A stretch of DNA of 64,000 nt from Gemmatimonadales bacterium (GCA_035577025.1 DATLVU010000058.1:129866-193865), one strand, 5' to 3'. Shown: positions 5,750 through 47,040, counted from the stretch's first letter. Program-made: numbers and translations. The notes: generated by a model from the sequence alone, not told the origin.

Positions 5750-5830
5750 GCGCCCTAAGAGGGCGCGCTCGGCGCGTGGTGCGCCCTTAGAGGGCGCACT
5801 CTAGGCCGAGCCCGGGCTATCAGCGCGGGG
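5750..5830 (+). repeat. Three-hairpin GC-rich intergenic repeat, copy 1
   Basis: Hairpins are GCGCCCTaagAGGGCGC, GCGCCCTTagaGGGCGC and GCCGAGCCCGGGCTatcaGCGCGGGG. The element is collinear with the copies at 33185-33266 and 46957-47040. Confidence 0.7.
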
Positions 5831-23029: not shown

Positions 23030-26000
23030 TCATAAGCCGCCGTTCAGCGTCACGCCTCCCCAGTAGAACGGATCGCCGGTACTCGGATTGCGCAGGACCG
23101 CGCGCTGCGCGTCTGCCAGGGCATCAACCTCCGAACGCCCCGCCGCCAGGTCAGCGTAGAAGCGCTCCATCAAGCCGGCCATCGCCCGGTCCTCGACCGG
23201 CCACAGCGTTGCCACGACGTTTGAAGCGCCAGCGAAGAGGAATGCCCGGACGAGTCCCACCCAGTCGTCGCCCGCCGGCACATCGGCCAGCGTACCGGAG
23301 CCGAGCCCGGTCTGACACGCGGACAGCACTACGAGTCGGGCGTTGAGGAGAAGACCGAACACGTCGTGCACCTCCAGCCGACCGTCGTCGGCGCCGTGCG
23401 GGGCGAGCTCGACGAACGAAAACAGGGGGTTGTCTTTGTTGAGCACTCCGAATGTGGCGAGATGCAGGATCGATGCACGCGGCGCCGAAGCAACGAATGC
23501 CAGTCGAGATGCTTCCGGGCCGACCAGCACGTGCGCCCGATCTCCGTAGATTCGGCCAATGGTGGCGACCTCGACCCGCGAGCCCGGCAGCGCATCCGCG
23601 CGGGGGGCGAGGGCCAGAACGCTTCCATCGCCAGACCGAGCTGGCCGCTCCCTCAACCGCAGCCAGACCGAAGCGGATGGCACGGAAGCCAGTCGGTAGC
23701 GCTCCACCAGGAACCGTCTTGGCGGCCCCGGCAGGCGCAGCGCTGCGAACGGGAGATAGTGCAGCTCGCCGTGAGGCGCGATGAGCAACGTCTGCGCCCG
23801 CTTCAGTAGCCCGGTGGCTTCGATCGGCTCGATGAGCGTTCGATACAGGCGCTCGAGCGGTGCCTCCCAGGGGACGGGAGCCCCAGGCGGTGCGGGATGG
23901 GCGAGGACGCCCCGAGCGAAGTCGATGAGACCGTTGAGGGCCCGCCGGTCGATACCGAGGTCGAGGGCAGTAATGGTGTCCGCCGTCACGACGAACACGA
24001 GTGTGGTCGAGTCGCTCACCACGTACTCGAGCAACGCCTCATCGGGGGCAAGTCGCGACGACACATCGCGCCATGACGCGAGCGCGCCACTCACGAGCGA
24101 AGCGTACTCCGGCTTTGCCGTCCGCATGGTGAGCAACAGATCAGCGTAGGCGCCCTGGGCGCTCGCCAATGCCTCCCGGACAGCGCCCGATGCCGGCGCT
24201 GAAAGCGGCGGCCCGCGGAGCCCGGGTGACACTCCCTCGGGCGACTCCAACCGGCGTGTCAGCTCGGTGATACGTCTTCTGAGGTCTTGCTCGCGCTCGG
24301 CGAGCGAGTCGTCGCCTGTGCGCGACCACGCGACGCGTCCGCGCGCGAGCAGGTCCAGCAGCTGCCGCGCCCGCAGTCGCTCGCTCGCCGCAAACGCCGA
24401 GTCTGGATGTCCTCGAGCCCGCTCGACGACCGCGAGCTGGGCGTAGACATCCCATTTGTCGGCGAGATACGTCGAGCGGTACTCTTCGAGCGACAAGCGA
24501 CCGGAGACGCGCTCCGTTTCCGCCACCGCGGCGCGCAACTCGGTTGCCGCTTGGTCGAGTGCGCCTCGACTCCGGAGCGCCTCACCCCAGCCGGCATGCA
24601 GCTGCCAGGCGACGTCCGGCGCCAGGCGATCGCCGATGCGGGCAAGGCCGCGCTGGTAGAGCGACTCCGCGGTCAGCGTCGTGCCGCTCGCGGCCTCGAG
24701 ATCGCCGAGCGCGCCAAGCGCCGCTGCCTCGCCAATGGGATCGTGGACGGCCTGCAGTGAATCAATGGCTGTGATGAGGCTACGTCGTGCCCCCGCGGTA
24801 TCACCCTCCTGCCGCTGGGCGGTGCCGAGCAGTATTCGCGTTACCGCCGCCGACCGCGTGTCGCCGAGCGTGCGCTGAGTGCGCAGGGCGAGCGTGAGGA
24901 GCGCCTGGGCGCCGGCATAATCCTCCCGGGCAAGCCGCAGGTATGCCCGCCCGTGCTGGGCCTCGGCTAGCACGGCCCCATCGCCGGCCCGTCGGGCGAG
25001 TCGCTCGGCACGCCCGTACTGACGATCCGCCTCGGCGAGGTTGTTGAACTCGACGTCGAGATCGGCCCGCGTCAAGGCGAGCTCGGCTTGGAGCGCGAGG
25101 CGTTCCCCCCTCGCCGCCGCGAGCCGCTCGGCGCGCCCCAACTCACTGAGCGCCCCCTGCAGGTTTCCCACGGCCGCGCGGGCATCGACCAGGTCGCGCC
25201 GCACGGCGACCTCCGCGACCAGGGGACCGGTTTCGTGATAGATACGGAGGGCTTCTCCGAGATTTCCGAGCGCGGCGGCGTAATCCCCACGTCGCAGCGC
25301 GAGCCGCCCCAGATCGTGCAGCACCGAGGCCGTTTCCACACGATTGCCACGCCCGCGGTAGATCGTCAGCGCCTCCGCGTACCGCGCGTCCGCGTCGGCA
25401 TAGTCGCCTTCCAGGCTGGCGACGCTCCCGAGATTGACGAGGTTCAGAGCCGCAGGCTCGAGACGCCCATCCCGACGATTGACTACCAAGGCCTCGGAGA
25501 ACGCATGCCGGGCACCGGCCAAGTCGCCGAGCTTCTCGGCGATCAGCCCAAGGTTGTTGCGGTCGGCCGCGGCTCCACGAGCGTCGCCGGTGCGCTCCCG
25601 CAGCTCGCCCGCCCGCGCGTACAGCTTTCGCGCGCGGGCCAAGTCACCGCGGTCCTTGCTGACGCTCGCCAAGTTGCCGATCGCATTGCCCATGGTGCGC
25701 CAATCGCCGATGCGCTCGGCCCAATCCCGCGAGCGGTCGAATTCCACCTCTGCACTATCGAGGCTGCCTTCGTCGTAGAACCCGCGACCCAGGTTACCCA
25801 GTACCGCCGCCGCGCCAGCCGTGTCGCTCGACGCTAACGAGCTGCGCAGGCTCTCGCGCCACAGGCGCATTGCCGCCGCCACGCCCTTCCGGCCCAAGGC
25901 TTCATTTCCAGTGCGGCGCAGGCTGTCCGCCGCGACCTTGGCGCGCCGCTCCGCGGGCGGCAATGACCGGTAACGGGCGACTTGGCGCAGGAGGAAGGAA

Positions 26001-26269
26001 TCGCGCCACGTGACCGCATATGCTCCGGCGAGACGGGTCGCCGCCGCGAGTGACACGGCCTGCAGGGTGTCATGGGAAGGCGGTGCGGCAAGCGCAAATA
26101 GCCGCCGGAGCGCGTCGCGAATGTCGTCCGGCCGCTCCTGGGCCCGCACGACGAGCACACTGTCGGGGGCGTCACGCGCCAGGACCACCAGCGATTCGGC
26201 GCTCGACATCGCAGGCGCCTGCACCGCCATTGCGGCGAGCAACCACAACGGCGAGGCAACGAGCATCAC
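23030..26269 (-). CDS. Secreted TPR-repeat CHAT-domain (caspase-like) protein
   Basis: 1079 aa. Signal-like N-terminus MMLVASPLWLLAAMAVQAPA. More than 12 TPR-like repeats are present (e.g. NLGLIAEKLGDLAGARHAFSEAL). C-terminal CHAT blocks are ILHLATFG...LVVLSACQTG...ATLWPV.D. Confidence 0.85.
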   Translation of the reverse strand: MMLVASPLWLLAAMAVQAPAMSSAESLVVLARDAPDSVLVVRAQERPDDIRDALRRLFALAAPPSHDTLQAVSLAAATRLAGAYAVTWRDSFLLRQVARYRSLPPAERRAKVAADSLRRTGNEALGRKGVAAAMRLWRESLRSSLASSDTAGAAAVLGNLGRGFYDEGSLDSAEVEFDRSRDWAERIGDWRTMGNAIGNLASVSKDRGDLARARKLYARAGELRERTGDARGAAADRNNLGLIAEKLGDLAGARHAFSEALVVNRRDGRLEPAALNLVNLGSVASLEGDYADADARYAEALTIYRGRGNRVETASVLHDLGRLALRRGDYAAALGNLGEALRIYHETGPLVAEVAVRRDLVDARAAVGNLQGALSELGRAERLAAARGERLALQAELALTRADLDVEFNNLAEADRQYGRAERLARRAGDGAVLAEAQHGRAYLRLAREDYAGAQALLTLALRTQRTLGDTRSAAVTRILLGTAQRQEGDTAGARRSLITAIDSLQAVHDPIGEAAALGALGDLEAASGTTLTAESLYQRGLARIGDRLAPDVAWQLHAGWGEALRSRGALDQAATELRAAVAETERVSGRLSLEEYRSTYLADKWDVYAQLAVVERARGHPDSAFAASERLRARQLLDLLARGRVAWSRTGDDSLAEREQDLRRRITELTRRLESPEGVSPGLRGPPLSAPASGAVREALASAQGAYADLLLTMRTAKPEYASLVSGALASWRDVSSRLAPDEALLEYVVSDSTTLVFVVTADTITALDLGIDRRALNGLIDFARGVLAHPAPPGAPVPWEAPLERLYRTLIEPIEATGLLKRAQTLLIAPHGELHYLPFAALRLPGPPRRFLVERYRLASVPSASVWLRLRERPARSGDGSVLALAPRADALPGSRVEVATIGRIYGDRAHVLVGPEASRLAFVASAPRASILHLATFGVLNKDNPLFSFVELAPHGADDGRLEVHDVFGLLLNARLVVLSACQTGLGSGTLADVPAGDDWVGLVRAFLFAGASNVVATLWPVEDRAMAGLMERFYADLAAGRSEVDALADAQRAVLRNPSTGDPFYWGGVTLNGGL

Positions 26270-33184: not shown

Positions 33185-33266
33185 GCACCCTGAAGAGGGC
33201 GCGCTCGGCCCGGGTGCGCCCTTACAGGGCGCCCTCTCAAGCCGAGCCCGGGCTGTCAGCCCGGGT
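33185..33266 (+). repeat. Three-hairpin GC-rich intergenic repeat, copy 2
   Basis: gcaccctgaagagggcgc...GCGCCCTTacaGGGCGC...GCCGAGCCCGGGCTgtcaGCCCGGGT. It is collinear with copies 1 and 3 and lies ~120 nt upstream of the SNF2 gene. Confidence 0.7.
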
Positions 33267-33387
33267 ATCCACGGGGCCGTTCGTGCCGTGACTGAGCCCG
33301 GGGAGCCCGAAGGGAGAGGGGGTAAGGGCGCTGAGGAGCAAAACGCAGAGCGGGTAAGGGGGTGAAGACCAGACTATAGAGGAGGTA

Positions 33388-35586
33388 ATGGGGGTGAGGT
33401 CCCCAGAACGCCCTCCCCGGGGCCCCGATTCCCTATATTGCGTGCCCCGATTCCCGGGTCACCGCGTGACGCTACCCAAACCCCTGCCGGACGACTCCTG
33501 GGCCGTCGACGAGCGCTCCCTCAAAGCGTTCGCCGACCAGCTCAAGCGGCCCCCCGCCGCGCGCGACTGGTACGAGCTGCGGCGCGACGCCGAGCGCATC
33601 GCGCTCGTCCCGGGCTTCGACCGCCTCATCACCCTCGACGCCAACGCCATCAAGGAGCTCCCCCACCAGATCGACGTCGCCCAACGGGTGCTGCGCGACA
33701 TGGGTGGCCGCGCCATCCTCGCGGACGAAGTGGGCCTGGGCAAGACGATCGAGGCGAGCATCATCTACAAGGAGCTCGCCATCCGCGGGCTCGCCCGCCG
33801 CGCCCTGATTCTCACCCCCGCCTCGCTCGTGGGCCAATGGCAGAGTGAGCTCGAAGAGAAATTCTTCGAGCGATTCGAGACTCCCGCCGTTCCTCACGAC
33901 TGGCAACGCATCACCAAAGCGATCGTGTCGCACGACCGCGCACGCTCGCCCCGTCACGCCGCCGAGATCCTACGGCAGCGCTGGGACCTGGTGATCGTGG
34001 ACGAGGCGCACAAGGTGAAGAGCCACAAGAGCGCCACCTACCAGTTCATCGAAAAGATCGAGCGCGACTTCATCCTGCTCCTCACCGCCACGCCGCTCCA
34101 AAACGACCTGCGCGAGCTGTACAACCTCGTCACCCTGCTGCGGCCCGGTCAGTTGGGGACCTGGGACGAGTTCAAGAGCGCCCACCTCATCTCCGGCGAC
34201 CAGCGCCAGCCGCGCGATCCCGAAGCGCTCCGCGCGCTCACCCACGAGGTGATGATCCGCACCCGGCGCTCGAGCGTCGTGGACGACCTCGATCTGCCCC
34301 CGCGCCGGCCGCGCCACCCCGAGGTCCGGCTCACCCCCGCCGAGGCGGACCTGTACGAGCGCACCACCGAGTTCTTGCGCCGCCTCTATAAGGAAGGGTT
34401 CGTCGGGACCGGCGACGCGGAGCCCGAGGAGGACGGCGGCTCGCGCAAGCGACGCACCGGCAAGGGCATGGTGCAGCTCGCGCTGATCCACCTGCGCCAG
34501 CGGCTCTGCTCTTCGGCGCGCGCGCTCGGCGAGTCGCTCGAGCACCTCGGCCAAGCCGAGCGCGTCATCCCCGCGTACCGCGCCATCGCACGCCAGCTCG
34601 CCACCCGCGCGCGGAAGATCAAGACGCACGCCAAGCTCAACGTGCTCGCCAAGCTGCTCAAGGAGACACCCGACCGGGCCGTGGTCTTCAGCGATCACCG
34701 CCCCACGGTCGAGCTGATCGCCGAGCGGGTGAAGCGGCTCGGCAGGAAGCCGATCGTCTATTGGGGCGCGCATTCGACCGCCGAGCGCGACGCGCGCATC
34801 CGTGCGTTCCAACAGGACGAGCGGAGCGTCTTGATCGCCACCCGCGCGGGCAGCGAAGGCAGAAACCTGCAGTTCTGCAACGTGCTGGTGAACTACGACC
34901 TGCCGTGGAACCCGATGGTGGTAGAGCAGCGGATCGGGCGGGTGCATCGCATCGGGCAGAAGCGCGCGGTCCATATCGTGAACCTCGCCGCGGCCGGGAC
35001 GATCGAGGCATACATCCTCCAGCTGCTCGACAAGAAGATCAAGCTGTTCGAGCTGGTGGTAGGCGAGCTGGACGTGATCCTCGGCGAGTTCGGCGGCGCG
35101 GAGCAGTTCGAGGGCCGGCTCGCCGAGCAGTGGCTCAAGGCGGAGAGCGAAGCGGACTTCATCCGCCAGGTCGAAGCGATCGGCACGGACATCGAGCAAA
35201 GCAGCACGGCGGGCCGAGAGCAGGAGCAGCTGAACTCACTGATCGCACCGGACGACAACGCCATGCGGCTCGAGCGGCGCTTCGACACGGTCTCGGTTCC
35301 GGGCCGGCTGCGCCTCGGCCTCGGCACGAACCAGCTGGTCAAGGCGCCCGCCTGGGACAGGAAGCGCCAACGGCTCGGTGTGCACGTCACGGAGATCCTC
35401 GAGGCGCTCGAGTCGATCGAGCCGATCGCCGGCGCTACGCCGCTCGCGCCCGCCGGCAGCCACCCGCAATACGGTGAGCTGGTCAAGCTCACCGGCCTGA
35501 CCAGCGCCGGCCGTGCCATCTCACTCGTGGCGCAGGTGACTCGCCTGCCCATGACGCTCGTCGATATCGCGGTGGACGCGGTATGA
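33388..35586 (+). CDS. SNF2-family (RapA/HepA-like) DEAH-box ATPase
   Basis: GAGGAGG lies upstream (ATG 33388 or GTG 33394). Motifs are LPHQ, DEVGLGKTIEA (I), VIVDEAHKVK (II), LLLTATPLQNDLRELYNL (III), helicase-C block GSEGRNLQ...NYDLPWNP...EQRIGRVHRIGQ. A ~170-aa C-terminal extension is unassigned. Confidence 0.9.
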   Translation: MGVRSPERPPRGPDSLYCVPRFPGHRVTLPKPLPDDSWAVDERSLKAFADQLKRPPAARDWYELRRDAERIALVPGFDRLITLDANAIKELPHQIDVAQRVLRDMGGRAILADEVGLGKTIEASIIYKELAIRGLARRALILTPASLVGQWQSELEEKFFERFETPAVPHDWQRITKAIVSHDRARSPRHAAEILRQRWDLVIVDEAHKVKSHKSATYQFIEKIERDFILLLTATPLQNDLRELYNLVTLLRPGQLGTWDEFKSAHLISGDQRQPRDPEALRALTHEVMIRTRRSSVVDDLDLPPRRPRHPEVRLTPAEADLYERTTEFLRRLYKEGFVGTGDAEPEEDGGSRKRRTGKGMVQLALIHLRQRLCSSARALGESLEHLGQAERVIPAYRAIARQLATRARKIKTHAKLNVLAKLLKETPDRAVVFSDHRPTVELIAERVKRLGRKPIVYWGAHSTAERDARIRAFQQDERSVLIATRAGSEGRNLQFCNVLVNYDLPWNPMVVEQRIGRVHRIGQKRAVHIVNLAAAGTIEAYILQLLDKKIKLFELVVGELDVILGEFGGAEQFEGRLAEQWLKAESEADFIRQVEAIGTDIEQSSTAGREQEQLNSLIAPDDNAMRLERRFDTVSVPGRLRLGLGTNQLVKAPAWDRKRQRLGVHVTEILEALESIEPIAGATPLAPAGSHPQYGELVKLTGLTSAGRAISLVAQVTRLPMTLVDIAVDAV

Positions 35587-37745
35587 AGCGCAAGCCGAGG
35601 CGTAAGCCGCGCGCCAAGCACGCCGCATCGCGGCAAGGCGAGCCGCACGCCGACGCCCATATCGGCCCGCTCGTCGAGCGCTACTGCCGCCTCGCGCGGG
35701 TGAAGCGGGCAGTCTCGGGCGACCTCCATGAGTTGAGCCTGCCTCCGTCCGAACGACGCTTCTTCCGGGATCGCGACCGCTTGCGTGTAGCGTTCTCGCT
35801 CGACGCGCTCGAGCGCCATCCCGAGGCCGAGATCGCGTTGCTCGGCAGCCCCTTCCTCTCCCAGCTGCTCGAGGCGATCCGCGCGCGCGCCACCCGCCTC
35901 TCACTCGGTCTGATCGCGCCCACGTCGCTGCCGGCAAAGAATCGGACGCAGGTCGCGTTGAGCATACCCGTTCGGGACGGGAAGGCCTTGCCCGGGAAGG
36001 CGCGCTCGGCCGTCCACCCGGTGGGGCGACTCATCGCCCGGGTGGTGCTGCGGGCGGGAGCGACCCTCGAGGAGGCGATGGTGGAAAGCGACGTGTGCGA
36101 CCTCTCGAGCGGCGCGCCAGTCGCGCGCGATGTCGCCGAGCTGTTTCACGAGCTCGAAGCCCGCCGGATCGAGCCCGCTGACCCGTCCATTGTTGCGAAG
36201 ACCAAGGTTGTCGCGGCGCGCCGGCCCGAGGACCTCTTGAAGCTGCTCGTCGGCAACCTGCGGGAGAAGTCCGCCGAGCGGGTCGCGGCGCGCCGCGGCG
36301 CGGCGGAGCAGCAGCTCGCGGTCGCGCTCGCCCGCCTCGACCGCTACTTCGCGACGATCCTCGCGGACCAGACCGATGCGGCAGGGGAAGCCGCCGTGAG
36401 GGCGCTCGCGGAACGGCGCCGCACCGAGGAGGTGCGCCGCAACCAGGTGCGCGCAATGGTGCATCCGCTCCAGCTCGTCGAGGCCACCGTCTCGATACAG
36501 CGCGCCGAATGGGAGGTCGAGAGTGGCGGGCATCGCGCGACCTTCAGCGCGCAGCGCTCGGCCGCCGGCGCGGGCGACTGGATCTTCGCGTGTCCCCAGT
36601 GCGGCACCGCGCCCGAGACGCTCGTCGTCTGCAAGCACGACCACTGCGCCTGTACAGCGTGCTCGCACCGCTGCTCGGTATGCGCCGCCGACTTCTGCGT
36701 CGAGCACGGCATTGCCCAGTGCCGCGTGGACGGCGAACCCGCGTGTGCGGAGCACGTGCGGTCGTGCCCCTCGTGCCAACTCCAGTACTGCACGGCGCAC
36801 GAGGGGATCTGTAGCGAAGGTGATCACCCGACGTGCTCGCTGTGCGTCCAGCCGTGCGCGAGCTGCGGCCGCATCGTCTGCAACCGGCACGCCGAACAGA
36901 CCAGTGCCGAAGCGCCGAAAGGCAGCCGCCGGCTCTGCCCGGCGTGCGTGCGGCAGTGCGAGGGCGGGAAGAATGAACCGGTGGGCGTGGATGAAGTGAC
37001 CCAGTGCTCGAGCTGCGGCAAGTCGGTCTGTACCGCCCATCAGGCCGTGTGCGCGGTGGATGGGGAGGCCCATTGCTCGCGTCATCTGCGACGAGCCGAG
37101 GCGTCGCGGCGGTTGGTGTGCGGCCAACACGCGAGCGCTTGTGCCTACGAAGCGGCGATCTTGTTCGCGTCGGATGAGGTCGCGCCGTGCACGTCGTGCG
37201 GCAAGCACGTCTGCGCCAACCACTCCGCGGAATGCGTCACGGATGGGCAGCGACATTGCACCGTCCACCTTGCACAGCTGGCCGACGCCGACGGCGCCTA
37301 TGCCTGCGAGGAGCACCGCAAGCTCTGCCACGTCGATGATCAGGCGTTCACGCCCACCGGCGTGAGCGCGTGCCCAGTCTGCGGCCAGGACGCGTGCACC
37401 GCACATCGAGCGGCGTGTGGGTATTGCGGACGCATCGTGTGTACGGCGGATCTCGGGAAGGTGGAGGCGGGCCGCCCCCGCCCCCGCCGCTGCTCCACCT
37501 GCGCGCGGCTCGCGGTGGACGGCGATGCGCCCGCGGAGGTGATCTCGGCTGCGTTCAAGGCGGCGGGCGAGCAGCGAAAGGGATCTCGCCCGCCCCGATC
37601 GCGCATCGCCCGGGACCACAGCCATTCGGTAGTGGAGCTCGACCTCGGGCTGAGCAGAAAGACGGTCGTCGTGCTGCGGCACGAAGACCTGGTTGCAGAA
37701 AGCGTCCTCAGGCACTCGCTGCTGGGATCGAAGCGGCGGAGCTAA
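35583..37745 (+). CDS. Uncharacterised 720-aa protein: basic N-terminus, unassigned ~330-aa region, then ~300-aa Cys/His-rich multi-zinc-ribbon-like repeat region
   Basis: Its ATG overlaps the SNF2 TGA (GTATGA). GC3 is high. About 45 Cys fall between residues 337 and 640, with 6-7 copies of C-x2-C-x4-C-x2-H. The 604-aa antisense ORF is Arg/Ala/Gly-rich shadow. Confidence 0.8.
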   Translation: MKRKPRRKPRAKHAASRQGEPHADAHIGPLVERYCRLARVKRAVSGDLHELSLPPSERRFFRDRDRLRVAFSLDALERHPEAEIALLGSPFLSQLLEAIRARATRLSLGLIAPTSLPAKNRTQVALSIPVRDGKALPGKARSAVHPVGRLIARVVLRAGATLEEAMVESDVCDLSSGAPVARDVAELFHELEARRIEPADPSIVAKTKVVAARRPEDLLKLLVGNLREKSAERVAARRGAAEQQLAVALARLDRYFATILADQTDAAGEAAVRALAERRRTEEVRRNQVRAMVHPLQLVEATVSIQRAEWEVESGGHRATFSAQRSAAGAGDWIFACPQCGTAPETLVVCKHDHCACTACSHRCSVCAADFCVEHGIAQCRVDGEPACAEHVRSCPSCQLQYCTAHEGICSEGDHPTCSLCVQPCASCGRIVCNRHAEQTSAEAPKGSRRLCPACVRQCEGGKNEPVGVDEVTQCSSCGKSVCTAHQAVCAVDGEAHCSRHLRRAEASRRLVCGQHASACAYEAAILFASDEVAPCTSCGKHVCANHSAECVTDGQRHCTVHLAQLADADGAYACEEHRKLCHVDDQAFTPTGVSACPVCGQDACTAHRAACGYCGRIVCTADLGKVEAGRPRPRRCSTCARLAVDGDAPAEVISAAFKAAGEQRKGSRPPRSRIARDHSHSVVELDLGLSRKTVVVLRHEDLVAESVLRHSLLGSKRRS

Positions 37746-42797: not shown

Positions 42798-42928
42798 ATA
42801 CGCCACCGGCTGACATTCCGGCCTCTAGAAAGACGGATCACACAGGGCCGTCTGGCCCCACGTCCCCCCGGCCCGTATGATGGGGTCGTCCCCACATGAG
42901 TGGCCGTTCTTACGCCCGTCATCGCGGT

Positions 42929-45193
42929 ATGAGCGATCTGCTCGCCCACCTCCAGGACGCGCTCGCCGAGCGCTATAGGCTCGAGCGCGAGATCGGCCGC
43001 GGGGGCATGGCTACCGTCTATTTGGCCGAGGATCTGAAACACCGCCGGCCGGTCGCTCTCAAGGTGCTCAGCCCGGACCTGGCTGCGAGCCTGGGCACCG
43101 ATCGGTTCCTGCGCGAAATCGAGATCGCGGCTCGGCTCGCCCATCCGCACATCCTGTCACTCCATGACTCCGGCGAAGCCGACGGCCTGTTGTACTACGT
43201 GATGCCCTACGTGGAGGGGGAGTCGCTGCGTGGCCGCTTGAACCGTGAGCGCCAGCTTCCGCTTGGCGACGCCCTGCGCATCAGCCGCGAGGTGGCGGAT
43301 GCCCTGGACTACGCCCACGGCCGCGACGTCGTGCATCGCGACATCAAGCCGGAGAACATCCTTTTCCAAGCCGGTCATGCGGTCGTGAGCGACTTCGGGA
43401 TCGCGCGGGCGATCCGCGTGGCGGGCGTGAAGCGGGTCACCGGGATGGGCATCGCCGTCGGCACCCCCGGGTACATGAGCCCGGAGCAAGCAGGCGGCAG
43501 CGAGCAGCTCGATGGCCGCAGCGATCTCTATAGCCTCGCTTGTGTGCTCTACGAGATGCTGGCGGGTGACCCTCCCTATACGGGCTGGTCGGCCCAGGCG
43601 ATTCTGGCCCGCCAAGCGGTCGAGCCCGTCCCACGCCTTCGCACCGTGCGAGACACGGTGCCCGAGTGGCTCGAGCAGGTGGTGACGAAAGCGCTTGGGA
43701 AGGCGCCCGCGGATCGGTTCGCCACGGCCGCCGATTTCATCGCGGCGCTGGCCCAACACGGCCCGCTGGCGGTCACGTCGCCGGCCCTTCCGCTCGTCCA
43801 GGCCCCAGCCGCCGCGGCGAACTCGATCGCCGTTCTGCCGTTTCTGAACATGAGCGCCGAACCCGAGAACGAGTATTTCAGCGACGGGATCACCGAAGAA
43901 ATCATCAACGCGTTGAGCGCCGTGGGCTCACTGCGAGTGGCGTCGCGGACTTCGTCGTTCGCGTTCAAAGGGGCGACGCAGGATATCCGGGCGATCGCGG
44001 AGAAACTGCAGGTGAGCGCGGTGCTCGAGGGCAGCGTCCGCCGGGCGGACACCAAGCTGCGGGTCACTGCCCAGCTCATCAGCGCCGCGGACGGCTTTCA
44101 CCTTTGGTCCGCCACTTACGAGCGGGAGATGAAGGACGTCTTCGCGATCCAGGACGAAATCGCCCGGGCCATCGTGAACGCGTTGAAAGTGAAGCTGACG
44201 AGCGAGCCCAGACTCGCGCTGGTCGAGCCACATACGGACAACGTAGAGGCCTATGCGCTCTATCTGAAGGCGCGCTACTTCTGGAGACGGAAATCGGCCA
44301 GCGGCTTGAAGAAAGGCATCGAGTACTTCGAGCAAGCGATCGCCCTCGACCCACGCTACTCGCTGGCATACGCCGGGCTAGCCGACTCCTACACCGCGCT
44401 CGGGTACTACAACTACCTTCCCCCGAAACAAGTGTTTCCTCGGGCGAGGGAGGCTGCCGATAGGGCTTTGGCGATCGACGACGGTCGGGCCGAGGCGCAT
44501 ACGGCGCGCGCGTGTGTGAGCCTGCTCTACGACTGGGACTGGACGGGCGCGGAACAAGGCTTCCAGCGGGCGATCCAGCTCAAAGAACTCTACCCAACCG
44601 CGCATTTCTGGTACGCATGCTGCTTATGGGCGATGGGCCGAACCGCGGACAGCGTCGAGCAAGCATCGCGCGCGAAGGCCCTGGCCCCGCTGTCGCTCGT
44701 GGCCAATGCGAATTTGGGCTGGGCGCTCTACTTCGCACGACAATATGACGAAGCCATCACCCAATGCCGGATAGTGCTGGACCTCGATACGCACTACTTG
44801 TTGACGTACGTCGTGCTCGGTCAAGTGCACCTGGCGGCGTGCCGATACGACGAAGCCATCAGCGCGCTGCAGAGCGCCGTCAGCGTTTCCGAGGGGCTCG
44901 CGTTCACGAGCGCGGTACTCGGCCACGCGTATGCAAGGGCAGGGAGGCGGCGCGAAGCGAAGAAAGTCTTGGAGAATCTCGAGCAGCGCGCGCGCGCCGG
45001 GTATGTGTCGCCGTTTTGCGGGGCGTTGGTATATGCCGGGCTCGGCGACCCGGATCACGCATTCGCCTCGCTCGAGCAGGCCTATGAAGAGCGCTCCAAT
45101 TGGCTGGCCTACCTCAAGGCATGGCCCCTAATGGACGACCTGCGCGCGGACGCGAGGTTCACGGCGCTCCTCGGCAAAGTTGGGTTGGGATAA
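42929..45193 (+). CDS. Ser/Thr protein kinase with C-terminal TolB-N-like and TPR domains
   Basis: Hanks kinase motifs are present (GRGGMATVY, VALK, HRDIKPENIL, DFGIA, GTPGYMSPEQ), followed by the IAVLPFLNMS block and TPR repeats. Confidence 0.9.
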   Translation: MSDLLAHLQDALAERYRLEREIGRGGMATVYLAEDLKHRRPVALKVLSPDLAASLGTDRFLREIEIAARLAHPHILSLHDSGEADGLLYYVMPYVEGESLRGRLNRERQLPLGDALRISREVADALDYAHGRDVVHRDIKPENILFQAGHAVVSDFGIARAIRVAGVKRVTGMGIAVGTPGYMSPEQAGGSEQLDGRSDLYSLACVLYEMLAGDPPYTGWSAQAILARQAVEPVPRLRTVRDTVPEWLEQVVTKALGKAPADRFATAADFIAALAQHGPLAVTSPALPLVQAPAAAANSIAVLPFLNMSAEPENEYFSDGITEEIINALSAVGSLRVASRTSSFAFKGATQDIRAIAEKLQVSAVLEGSVRRADTKLRVTAQLISAADGFHLWSATYEREMKDVFAIQDEIARAIVNALKVKLTSEPRLALVEPHTDNVEAYALYLKARYFWRRKSASGLKKGIEYFEQAIALDPRYSLAYAGLADSYTALGYYNYLPPKQVFPRAREAADRALAIDDGRAEAHTARACVSLLYDWDWTGAEQGFQRAIQLKELYPTAHFWYACCLWAMGRTADSVEQASRAKALAPLSLVANANLGWALYFARQYDEAITQCRIVLDLDTHYLLTYVVLGQVHLAACRYDEAISALQSAVSVSEGLAFTSAVLGHAYARAGRRREAKKVLENLEQRARAGYVSPFCGALVYAGLGDPDHAFASLEQAYEERSNWLAYLKAWPLMDDLRADARFTALLGKVGLG

Positions 45194-46956: not shown

Positions 46957-47040
46957 GACGCCCTGAAGGGCGCGCTCGGCCCGGTGTGCGCCCTTACAGG
47001 GCGCCCCCTCGAGTCGAGCCCGGGCTCTCAGCCCGGGTAC
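46957..47040 (+). repeat. Three-hairpin GC-rich intergenic repeat, copy 3
   Basis: GACGCCCTgaAGGGCGC...GCGCCCTTacaGGGCGC...GTCGAGCCCGGGCTctcaGCCCGGGTAC. Confidence 0.7.

Follow-up and report, generated by a model that had tools for sequence, protein, structure and literature searches.

The question raised by this locus is what is encoded by two overlapping genes, a predicted SNF2-family ATPase and an unfamiliar cysteine-rich protein immediately behind it. Both lie on the + strand of a 64,000-nucleotide stretch of DNA from a Gemmatimonadales bacterium (DATLVU010000058.1:129866-193865), hereafter called the window. The SNF2 gene occupies positions 33388-35586 (732-aa open reading frame (ORF); Pfam SNF2-rel_dom and Helicase_C). 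Its partner, a gene of no annotated family, occupies positions 35583-37745 (720 aa; ORF, homologues, and AlphaFold2 model). As the original prediction, made from the sequence alone, had stated, the two ORFs overlap at 35583-35586. The ORF map and the junction sequence (GCG GTA TGA) place the partner ATG at 35583 over the SNF2 TGA at 35584-35586, an ATGA start/stop overlap that implies translational coupling. The evidence presented below indicates that the two genes very probably encode the two chains of a split SNF2 enzyme of the RapA/BrxHII class, since a RapA-type module is present on the partner and the motor chain has no module of its own in distant pairs. The explanation as a whole, in which this split translocase serves as a housekeeping remodeller, stands at about even strength for and against.

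The AlphaFold2 model of the partner has a mean predicted local distance difference test (pLDDT) value of 88.4 and consists of several distinct parts. Residues 1–21 form a disordered basic tail, which is followed by a small α/β domain (approximately residues 27–111), four strands (residues 122–168), two very long helices (residues 215–261 and 266–286), and a long hairpin (residues 290–326). Beyond these, approximately 22 short β elements are distributed over residues 347–620, and a five-stranded terminal domain comprises residues 673–719. Residues 1–330 contain 2 Cys. A Foldseek search against the PDB returned four matches at E ≤ 0.001, all of them to E. coli RapA (E 1.4e-5 to 1.7e-4, probability 1.0), which span 311–318 aligned columns; one of the four entries is an N-terminally truncated RapA. 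The zinc-type region of the partner has no possible counterpart in RapA, and the aligned columns are as many as the rest of the partner is long; the match is therefore assigned to the N-terminal module. In a 2026 comparative study, the helicase core of RapA, BrxHII, and the BREX-related helicases was described as being followed first by a degenerate restriction endonuclease (REase)-like α+β domain, the ‘Spacer’ of RapA (PMC12839542). The second domain in this order is a β-sheet with a two-helix coiled-coil insert, for which no homologue was found outside the RapA/BrxHII/BREX-related helicase group (PMC12839542). The partner model shows its elements in an order that agrees with this account. 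Residues 27–111 (35661-35915, + strand) are proposed to be the equivalent of the Spacer, a degenerate REase-like fold, on the basis of the model, hhalign, and Foldseek, and residues 122–326 (35946-36560, + strand) to be the equivalent of the RapA/BrxHII C-terminal α+β domain, on the basis of the model, Foldseek, and hmmsearch. Judged by the predicted structure, the RapA-type combination of a Spacer and a coiled-coil C-terminal domain is present, and it lies on the partner chain.

Sequence comparisons point in the same direction. When the family profile of the partner was searched against 177,635 PDB sequences, RapA ranked first among the matches that are not zinc fingers (E ~0.8, ~5e-6 per comparison). 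Partner residues 24–99 were aligned by hhalign with RapA residues 712–791 (pairwise E 0.0037, probability 9%), and residues 123–245 by hmmsearch with RapA residues 796–923. A hidden Markov model (HMM) of the N-terminal module gave 12.1 bits for real RapA vs at most 9.3 bits for 2000 shuffled copies; the stretch aligned to RapA is a helix with an EKSA...AEL-RL motif. These signals are weak alone and serve only to corroborate the structural match. Taken together with the model and with Foldseek, the collinear matches identify a RapA/BrxHII post-helicase module in residues 1–330, a region that the original prediction had been unable to place in any family.

The motor chain shows the features of a complete SNF2 ATPase, in agreement with what had been predicted. 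Its N-terminal ATPase lobe (residues 109–330; 33712-34377, + strand) matches Pfam PF00176 at 2.6e-33 (115.8 bits, cut-off 24.9), and its Helicase_C lobe (residues 416–523; 34633-34956, + strand) matches PF00271 at 1.2e-21 (77.5 bits, cut-off 23.5). Motif I, DEVGLGKT (residues 113–120; 33724-33747), motif II, DEAH (residues 205–208; 34000-34011), motif III, TATP (within 33712-34377), and motif VI, QRIGRVHRIGQ (residues 514–524; 34927-34959, ending 3 nt beyond the Helicase_C lobe), all lie on the + strand and are invariant in a 10-sequence alignment covering several phyla, in which motif VI takes the form QRIGRxHRxGQ. As read from the alignment, the protein is a member of the SNF2 family and its catalytic motifs are intact. 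Among solved structures, a Sulfolobus Rad54-like core is nearest to the SNF2 core and RapA is second (2e-35), and the best names given by PADLOC are DrmD (6.7e-70) and BrxHI/HII (7.6e-69, 231 bits). Because the scores lie below the family cut-offs, no Tudor domain was detected, and companion genes are missing, the protein is not assigned to any named system; by its sequence relationships, it is a distinct subfamily inside the RapA-like clade.

The C-terminal part of the motor bears directly on the split. A C-terminal extension (approximately residues 620–732; 35245-35583, + strand) is specific to Gemmatimonadota and conserved there. This tail of ~110 aa is missing from the 595–643-aa SNF2 proteins that are paired with distant partners. 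Those proteins stop ~60 aa past Helicase_C and therefore carry no post-helicase module of their own. At the other end of the chain, the start codon is ambiguous: most orthologues have 705–712 aa, i.e., ~25 residues fewer, and a GGAGG box lies 2 nt before ATG 33388 and 8 nt before GTG 33394. Either GTG 33394 or a codon ~25 positions downstream may be the true start. About 90 aa, or fewer if the start is downstream, precede the ATPase core.

The partner matched nothing in Pfam, NCBIfam, PADLOC, or PHROG, even at permissive thresholds, so that its earlier description as a protein of no annotated family was upheld by four profile libraries; no description of the family was found in the literature, as far as open-access papers and bioRxiv are concerned. 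A word-indexed search yielded at least 414 homologues, and an exhaustive search covering 1.84 billion proteins yielded 246 cluster representatives at 50% identity. That the partner ORF is a genuine gene and not a high-GC artefact follows from its hundreds of homologues, including low-GC members, and from the confident AlphaFold2 model. Two long antisense ORFs also overlie the pair, one of 604 aa (35901-37715, − strand) that spans nearly the whole partner gene and one of 409 aa inside the SNF2 gene. They are typical shadow ORFs, of a kind common in this high-GC DNA, and a likely source of mis-annotation.

A survey of homologue neighborhoods showed that the linkage of the partner to SNF2 is conserved, both in Gemmatimonadota and in distant loci. 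Scanning one genome per GTDB species revealed at least 74 partner loci, nearly all in metagenome-assembled genomes (MAGs) of Gemmatimonadales/Gemmatimonadota, a phyletic picture that is biased towards Gemmatimonadota because the query consisted of 10 close partner sequences. The scan also hit a few short contigs that carry the label of another phylum, probably through mis-binning. SNF2 was found upstream of the partner on the same strand in every Gemmatimonadota locus with upstream sequence (59/59, tblastn), with 54–96% identity to the window protein and an end no more than 184 nt from the first aligned partner residue; the remaining 15 of the 74 loci begin at a contig edge and are left out of this count. 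Beyond these, SNF2 is directly upstream in all eight distant loci (L006, L007, L008, L009, L010, L011, L012, and L091), whose partners are 20–30% identical and three of which are named as, or inferred to be from, other phyla. The distant family members, which came from an exhaustive search of representatives, originate from Candidatus Amarolinea (Chloroflexota) and an Eremiobacterota MAG, both so named by the source, a low-GC contig, and others. One distant partner is strongly acidic and, from this composition, may come from a halophile. The SNF2 proteins of the distant loci are 39–41% identical to that of the window over ~550 residues; therefore, both genes have co-diverged.

The spacing of the two genes is equally tight. 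In 10 of the 11 loci with gene calls, they overlap by 1 or 4 nt or are separated by a gap of no more than 4 nt: the overlap is 4 nt in L001-L005 and L010 and 1 nt in L008, and gaps of 3–4 nt occur in L006, L011, and L012. No sigma-70-like promoter was found, nor a convincing terminator between the SNF2 and partner genes. In the metagenomic protein P0155, the SNF2 C-terminus appears to be fused in frame to the partner N-terminus, the sole exception to the split. Three other candidates for such fusions (P0184, P0139, and P0171) were rejected as out-of-frame ORF calls over the SNF2 3′ end. Conserved adjacency and tight spacing thus support the earlier reading of the two genes as one unit. A coincidental overlap of two unrelated genes is barely conceivable in view of the adjacency in 59/59 and 8/8 loci across phyla, the co-divergence, the spacing, and the apparent fusion. 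With regard to copy number, no second copy of the pair is present in the 64-kb window. Two diverged, complete SNF2-partner pairs occur in one MAG (L037 and L045 of SMAG_U11526), and two diverged partner copies per MAG were seen for L049/L074 and L056/L076; these double copies reflect either paralogy or bin contamination.

Within Gemmatimonadota, the pair has the appearance of a chromosomal gene set. SNF2 is at least 79% identical across the best 120 clusters; for the partner, identity is 55–93%. The flanking genes in Gemmatimonadales, as seen in the window and three other contexts, are metabolic and lineage-variable, and no defence or mobile-element genes are among them. No relatives of the pair were found among viral contigs. 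This pattern looks like that of a vertically inherited, selectively constrained chromosomal function. A chromosomal housekeeping role in Gemmatimonadota is most likely, given the 74 or more loci, the conservation of SNF2, the metabolic flanks, and the lack of relatives on viral contigs.

The remainder of the partner is dominated by a tandem repeat. The original prediction had noted an extremely Cys-rich region, and indeed 45 Cys and 19 His fall within residues 331–650. The repeat unit is C-x2-[C/D]-x4-C-x2-[H/C/D]-x3, with 10 strict copies and ~20 units between C337 and C640; alternate units have Asp in place of the second Cys (e.g., CAVDGEAHCSRH). Cys spacing, autocorrelation, and invariant columns define a zinc-knuckle array of ~20 units of 15 residues at residues 337–640 (36591-37502, + strand). 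Autocorrelation of Cys positions peaks at lags of 15, 30, and 45 in every member that was tested, with the exception of a 1610-aa form, in which lag 30 is dominant. Among the invariant columns of a 55-sequence partner alignment, 33 of 35 are Cys or His. From this strictly conserved Cys/His spacing, the array is predicted to bind zinc. The array is followed by a small β domain at approximately residues 650–720 (37530-37742, + strand), which has five strands in the model and can be aligned throughout the family, few of its columns being strictly conserved (A676, D678, V683, V695, H700, and H711).

The length of the array differs among relatives. In the window protein, a 61-aa super-repeat of ~4 zinc units is duplicated (residues 475–535 and 536–596; 37005-37370), and many relatives of ~670–680 aa, e.g., P0094, have one copy only. 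Because these short relatives have a single copy, repeat units are gained or lost within the phylum. Over the family, partner homologues range from 658 to 1610 aa, including one of 1051 aa, and the number of tandem units ranges from ~10 to more than 25. That 1051-aa partner, the acidic and possibly halophilic one of L010, is followed at L010:10049-11916 by two ORFs of 324 and 298 aa with overlapping stops and starts, which have no match in Pfam, NCBIfam, or PADLOC and are possible extra subunits. The only viral models matched by Foldseek were adenovirus fibre shafts and uncharacterised proteins of giant viruses and phages, with low template modelling (TM) scores. These matches suggest an elongated rod shape for the partner and are uninformative on its function.

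On these grounds, the following mechanism can be proposed. The first gene would supply an ATP-driven motor with two RecA-like lobes and SNF2 inserts, and the second would supply in trans the post-helicase module that RapA and BrxHII carry covalently, together with ~20 tandem zinc knuckles of 15 residues and a small terminal β domain. The ATGA overlap would couple translation so that both chains are made together, and the SNF2 protein and its partner may then assemble 1:1. The complex would move along duplex DNA at the expense of ATP and remodel or evict a protein complex bound to it. In RapA, lobes 1A and 2A are the binding site for the flap-tip helix of RNA polymerase, and contact with the β′ zinc-binding domain is made by the Spacer (PMC8501970). 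Upon nucleotide binding, the RapA N-domain pulls the clamp open via the β′ zinc-binding domain, with the Spacer wedging itself into the cleft (bioRxiv 10.1101/2024.09.28.614012). By analogy with RapA, which clears post-termination complexes, RNA polymerase is the leading candidate for the target, although a tentative one. The zinc array and the terminal domain may act as a targeting or regulatory arm, in place of the undetected Tudor N-domain. The gene pair and its conservation, the intact ATPase motifs, the structural match with RapA, and the repeat architecture are observations; that the chains form a complex, bind zinc, and translocate on DNA, and most of all what they act on, is inferred.

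Several observations weigh against this explanation. The TM-scores of the Foldseek matches to RapA are low (0.17–0.19, normalised to the 720-aa query), with a root-mean-square deviation of ~10 Å, and the search gave no aligned coordinates, so that the matching region was deduced from its length. The sequence evidence for RapA is thin, with E ~0.8, an hhalign probability of 9%, and a coiled-coil helix as the best stretch; Pfam and NCBIfam revealed no RapA C-terminal region in the partner at E ≤ 1. An AlphaFold model of SNF2 fused to partner residues 1–335 had a pLDDT of 43 and was unusable for RapA-like docking. On the motor side, Pfam revealed no Tudor-type N-domain at E ≤ 1, and the score against the RapA equivalog (NF003426) was 202.4 bits for a cut-off of 576. 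At L097:2960-4744, an SNF2 orthologue without a downstream partner stands beside an AAA gene. This SNF2 shows 64% tblastn identity to one of the L006/L007/L012 SNF2 proteins, and an opposite-strand ORF lies between it and the AAA gene; the locus may be decayed, or the motor may be able to exist alone. Finally, some distant homologues have defence-type neighbors or kinase fusions (L007, L008, L009, and L011), and the RapA/BrxHII architecture is common to defence helicases and thus gives no specific pointer to RNA polymerase.

The last two points lead to the rival for which the most can be said, a stand-alone anti-phage or anti-plasmid module, which we consider possible but doubtful. Here, a BrxHII/DrmD-like SNF2 would scan DNA, and the REase-like domain and the zinc rod would detect a phage protein or nucleic acid of foreign origin, resulting in eviction, stalling, or signalling, the last of these through a fused Ser/Thr kinase in some lineages. 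In its favor, DrmD and BrxHI/HII are the best PADLOC matches of the SNF2 protein, and the inactive REase (iREase) and the C-terminal α+β domain are common to BrxHII and the BREX-related helicases, for which the iREase has been proposed as a sensor (PMC12839542). The distant neighborhoods also fit: an N-terminal Ser/Thr kinase is fused to the partner-linked SNF2 at L008:5284-8001 and L011:3111-5918 (905 and 935 aa); the neighbors in L008 further include a NERD/UvrD gene, a PemK toxin, and, after the partner, a second kinase-TPR gene, L011 adjoins a WYL regulator and GAP1-N2/DO-GTPase genes, L007 adjoins type I restriction-modification fragments, and L009 has VWA, FHA, kinase, and PLD genes as neighbors. 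The sparse occurrence outside Gemmatimonadota, judged from the 246 representatives, the highly variable repeat number with partners of 658–1610 aa, and the two diverged copies in some MAGs are likewise consistent with defence. However, no methyltransferase, nuclease, PglZ, BrxC, or DUF499 partner was found in any locus examined, every defence equivalog cut-off was missed by a wide margin, the partner has no PADLOC or PHROG match, and no relatives were found on viral contigs. Moreover, the Gemmatimonadota pair is phylum-wide, lies among metabolic genes, and has an unusually conserved SNF2. The architecture shared with BrxHII cannot distinguish a defence role from one at RNA polymerase. A further view, which is also doubtful, extends the split-enzyme architecture to a new kind of two-chain surveillance device found in at least 4–5 phyla, in which a RapA-type adaptor would have come off its SNF2 motor and been joined to a rigid rod, variable in length (10 to more than 25 knuckles), that gates the motor. 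The rod might then work as a ruler or a sensor, its object being, for example, a complex bound to DNA, nucleic acid of foreign origin, or the redox or zinc status, and the cassette would be wired to Ser/Thr kinases or set in an AAA+/DUF1257/DUF2997 module in some lineages.

A DNA-repair or fork remodeller like Rad5/HLTF/SHPRH, with the zinc array as its RING or zinc-finger module, is very unlikely. An SNF2 motor joined to many zinc-type motifs would suit such a role, and the repeats do give weak profile matches to the B-box1 of MID1 (E 0.006), the B-box of TRIM32 (E 0.0085), and FYVE domains (E 0.008–0.05). However, Pfam revealed no SWIM, RING, or HIRAN signature at E ≤ 1, and the B-box/RING/FYVE matches to PDB chains reach only E 0.006–0.05, below usual significance. 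Although the Cys/His spacing of the partner is compatible with zinc knuckles, its strict 15-residue period in tandem differs from B-box and FYVE fingers and from a cross-brace RING, and no Pfam family applies. The nearest solved motors are the Sulfolobus Rad54-like core and RapA rather than the Rad5 class, and no linked repair genes were found in any locus examined. The analogy with Rad5/HLTF RING or SWIM proteins in the original prediction is accordingly not sustained. It is also highly improbable that the pair forms subunits of a larger AAA+ unfoldase/DUF1257/DUF2997 machine whose other parts are encoded elsewhere in Gemmatimonadota. This idea arises from the divergent loci L006, L007, and L012, in which the pair lies between a classical AAA+ ATPase gene (L006:4559-6049, L007:4464-5969, and L012:1388-2929) and DUF2997/DUF1257 genes, sometimes accompanied by a radical SAM gene, and from L091, in which the order AAA, SNF2, partner runs up to the contig end. 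Yet among the best 80 metagenomic AAA loci, 3 have SNF2, whereas ~40 have DUF1257, DUF2997, or radical SAM but no SNF2; because so few carry SNF2, the AAA module is independent and far more widespread. The 64-kb window has no AAA, DUF1257, DUF2997, or radical SAM homologue, and the pair occurs without the AAA set in L008, L010, and L011. The AAA, DUF1257, DUF2997, and radical SAM genes were therefore rejected as obligatory components on the count of 3 in 80. Since the AAA subfamily mostly lacks SNF2 and its genes are absent from the window, the pair of SNF2 and partner behaves like an independent cassette, inserted at times into other modules.

The AAA+ subfamily itself deserves a brief description. 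Its members, present for instance in the metagenome loci L088-L167, have ~500 aa and an N-terminal ARYPLLYIVT-EE motif, and at least 439 metagenomic relatives were found. They are often clustered with DUF1257 (Ycf35-like), DUF2997, and a small NrdG/PflA-like radical SAM gene, a combination that looks like an uncharacterised module of its own.

Around the pair, the window shows an aspartyl-protease-like ORF upstream and a lipoprotein-like ORF, a DHOR protein, and an amidohydrolase downstream. The flanks are thus as originally described, with a lipoprotein-like ORF of no family behind the pair and no methyltransferase, nuclease, PLD, or known defence partner flanking it in the window. Among the loci compared, L003, the closest relative, is the only one syntenic with the window. 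No Rfam family was matched in the segment of the window from 30 to 40 kb. Upstream of the SNF2 gene, a GC-rich hairpin cluster, REP-like (repetitive extragenic palindromic), lies at 33188-33310 (+ strand; minimum free energy (MFE) and palindrome count). Its MFE of −80.4 kcal/mol compares with −68.7 for shuffles (z = −2.6). The 20-nt GC-rich palindrome GCCCGGGCTGNCAGCCCGGG at its center has 3 sites in the window vs 0.2 expected from shuffles (5810-5830, 33246-33266, and 47018-47038), the 33246 copy lying in the 514-nt intergenic region upstream of SNF2. The dispersed palindrome looks like a REP-like hairpin element. The REP-like element of the original prediction is thus recovered in part, as a segment that folds better than shuffles and whose central palindrome is repeated in the window; the cluster probably belongs to the intergenic region and not to the module.

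Two other genes of the window are of some interest. A 1079-aa TPR and CHAT-domain protein (CHAT 1.9e-60) is encoded ~7 kb upstream of the pair (23030-26269, − strand); this is a caspase-like protease architecture of a kind found in prokaryotic conflict systems. A kinase-TPR gene lies 5 kb downstream of the pair (42896-45193). Kinase-TPR genes are abundant in Gemmatimonadota, and its proximity may be a coincidence.

In bacteria, the principal relatives of chromatin remodellers are the RapA-type SNF2 ATPases, and Gemmatimonadota are a major, poorly studied soil phylum. A RapA-like SNF2 remodeller is in itself already known. Three features are new: an enzyme of the RapA/BrxHII type is split between a motor chain and an adaptor chain, zinc knuckles of 15 residues are arrayed in tandem, and the pair is conserved throughout the phylum Gemmatimonadota and has relatives with fused kinases elsewhere. 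According to a recent report, only RapA and BREX-type helicases possess these post-helicase domains (PMC12839542). If the split-enzyme explanation is true, this module can work as a separate subunit, and the pair offers experimenters a natural dissection of motor and adaptor. Several hundred ‘hypothetical’ proteins of one family would also gain a structural identity, and Gemmatimonadota a likely phylum-wide remodeller, and the kinase-fused and defence-adjacent relatives would provide a testable route to separate transcription quality control from immunity. If instead the surveillance reading is true, the pair is a new modular device and more than a RapA orthologue.

Comparison with known systems places the pair close to, and outside, each of them. 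Curated equivalog models of the defence ATPases recognize homologous SNF2 cores in DrmD, DpdE, and ZorD (91–237 bits), but the cut-offs are missed 2- to 16-fold: 236.8 and 197 bits for DISARM DrmD (NF038318 / NF038317; cut-offs 950 / 610), 230.8 bits for DpdE (NF041062; cut-off 500), and 91.3 bits for Zorya ZorD (NF041790; cut-off 1500). No DISARM (drmA/B/C), dpd, or zorABC genes were found near the pair in the window or related loci. Membership of the motor in DISARM or Zorya, two systems named in the original prediction, was thus not borne out. Against the RapA equivalog, the distant SNF2 orthologue of L006 scores 198.2 bits. With RapA, the pair shares an SNF2 core of the same broad clade, and the ~310 N-terminal residues of the partner match the RapA structure, collinear with RapA residues ~712–923 (Spacer and C-terminal domain). 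However, RapA is a single chain and the enzyme proposed here comprises two polypeptides, the Tudor N-domain of RapA was not detected, and the second chain adds a zinc-knuckle array of ~300 aa and a terminal β domain.

BrxHII and the DUF499-centred BREX-related helicases, of which BrxHII was compared by description only, have the same sequence of an REase-like domain followed by a β-sheet domain with a coiled-coil insert (PMC12839542). The elements of the BrxHII architecture, i.e., an SNF2 core, an REase that is inactive, and an α+β domain at the C-terminus, appear here spread over two chains, with Tudor not detected. In contrast to BrxHII as described, the module is on a separate chain and a zinc array is present. 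The partner also lacks any PADLOC match, and the loci lack BREX companion genes; no BrxC, DUF499, PglZ, or N6-/BrxXI methyltransferase genes were found in the window or in L001-L012. Like SNF2-SWIM pairs and Rad5/HLTF, the system joins an SNF2 motor with a Cys/His zinc-type module; unlike them, it has a long array of 15-residue knuckles, which is carried on the chain of the RapA-type module and not on that of the motor. The original proposal of a split analogue of the SNF2-plus-zinc-finger arrangement therefore stands in so far as the two chains form a unit with a partner unlike SWIM, but the unit is better described as a RapA/BrxHII enzyme that has probably been cut in two.

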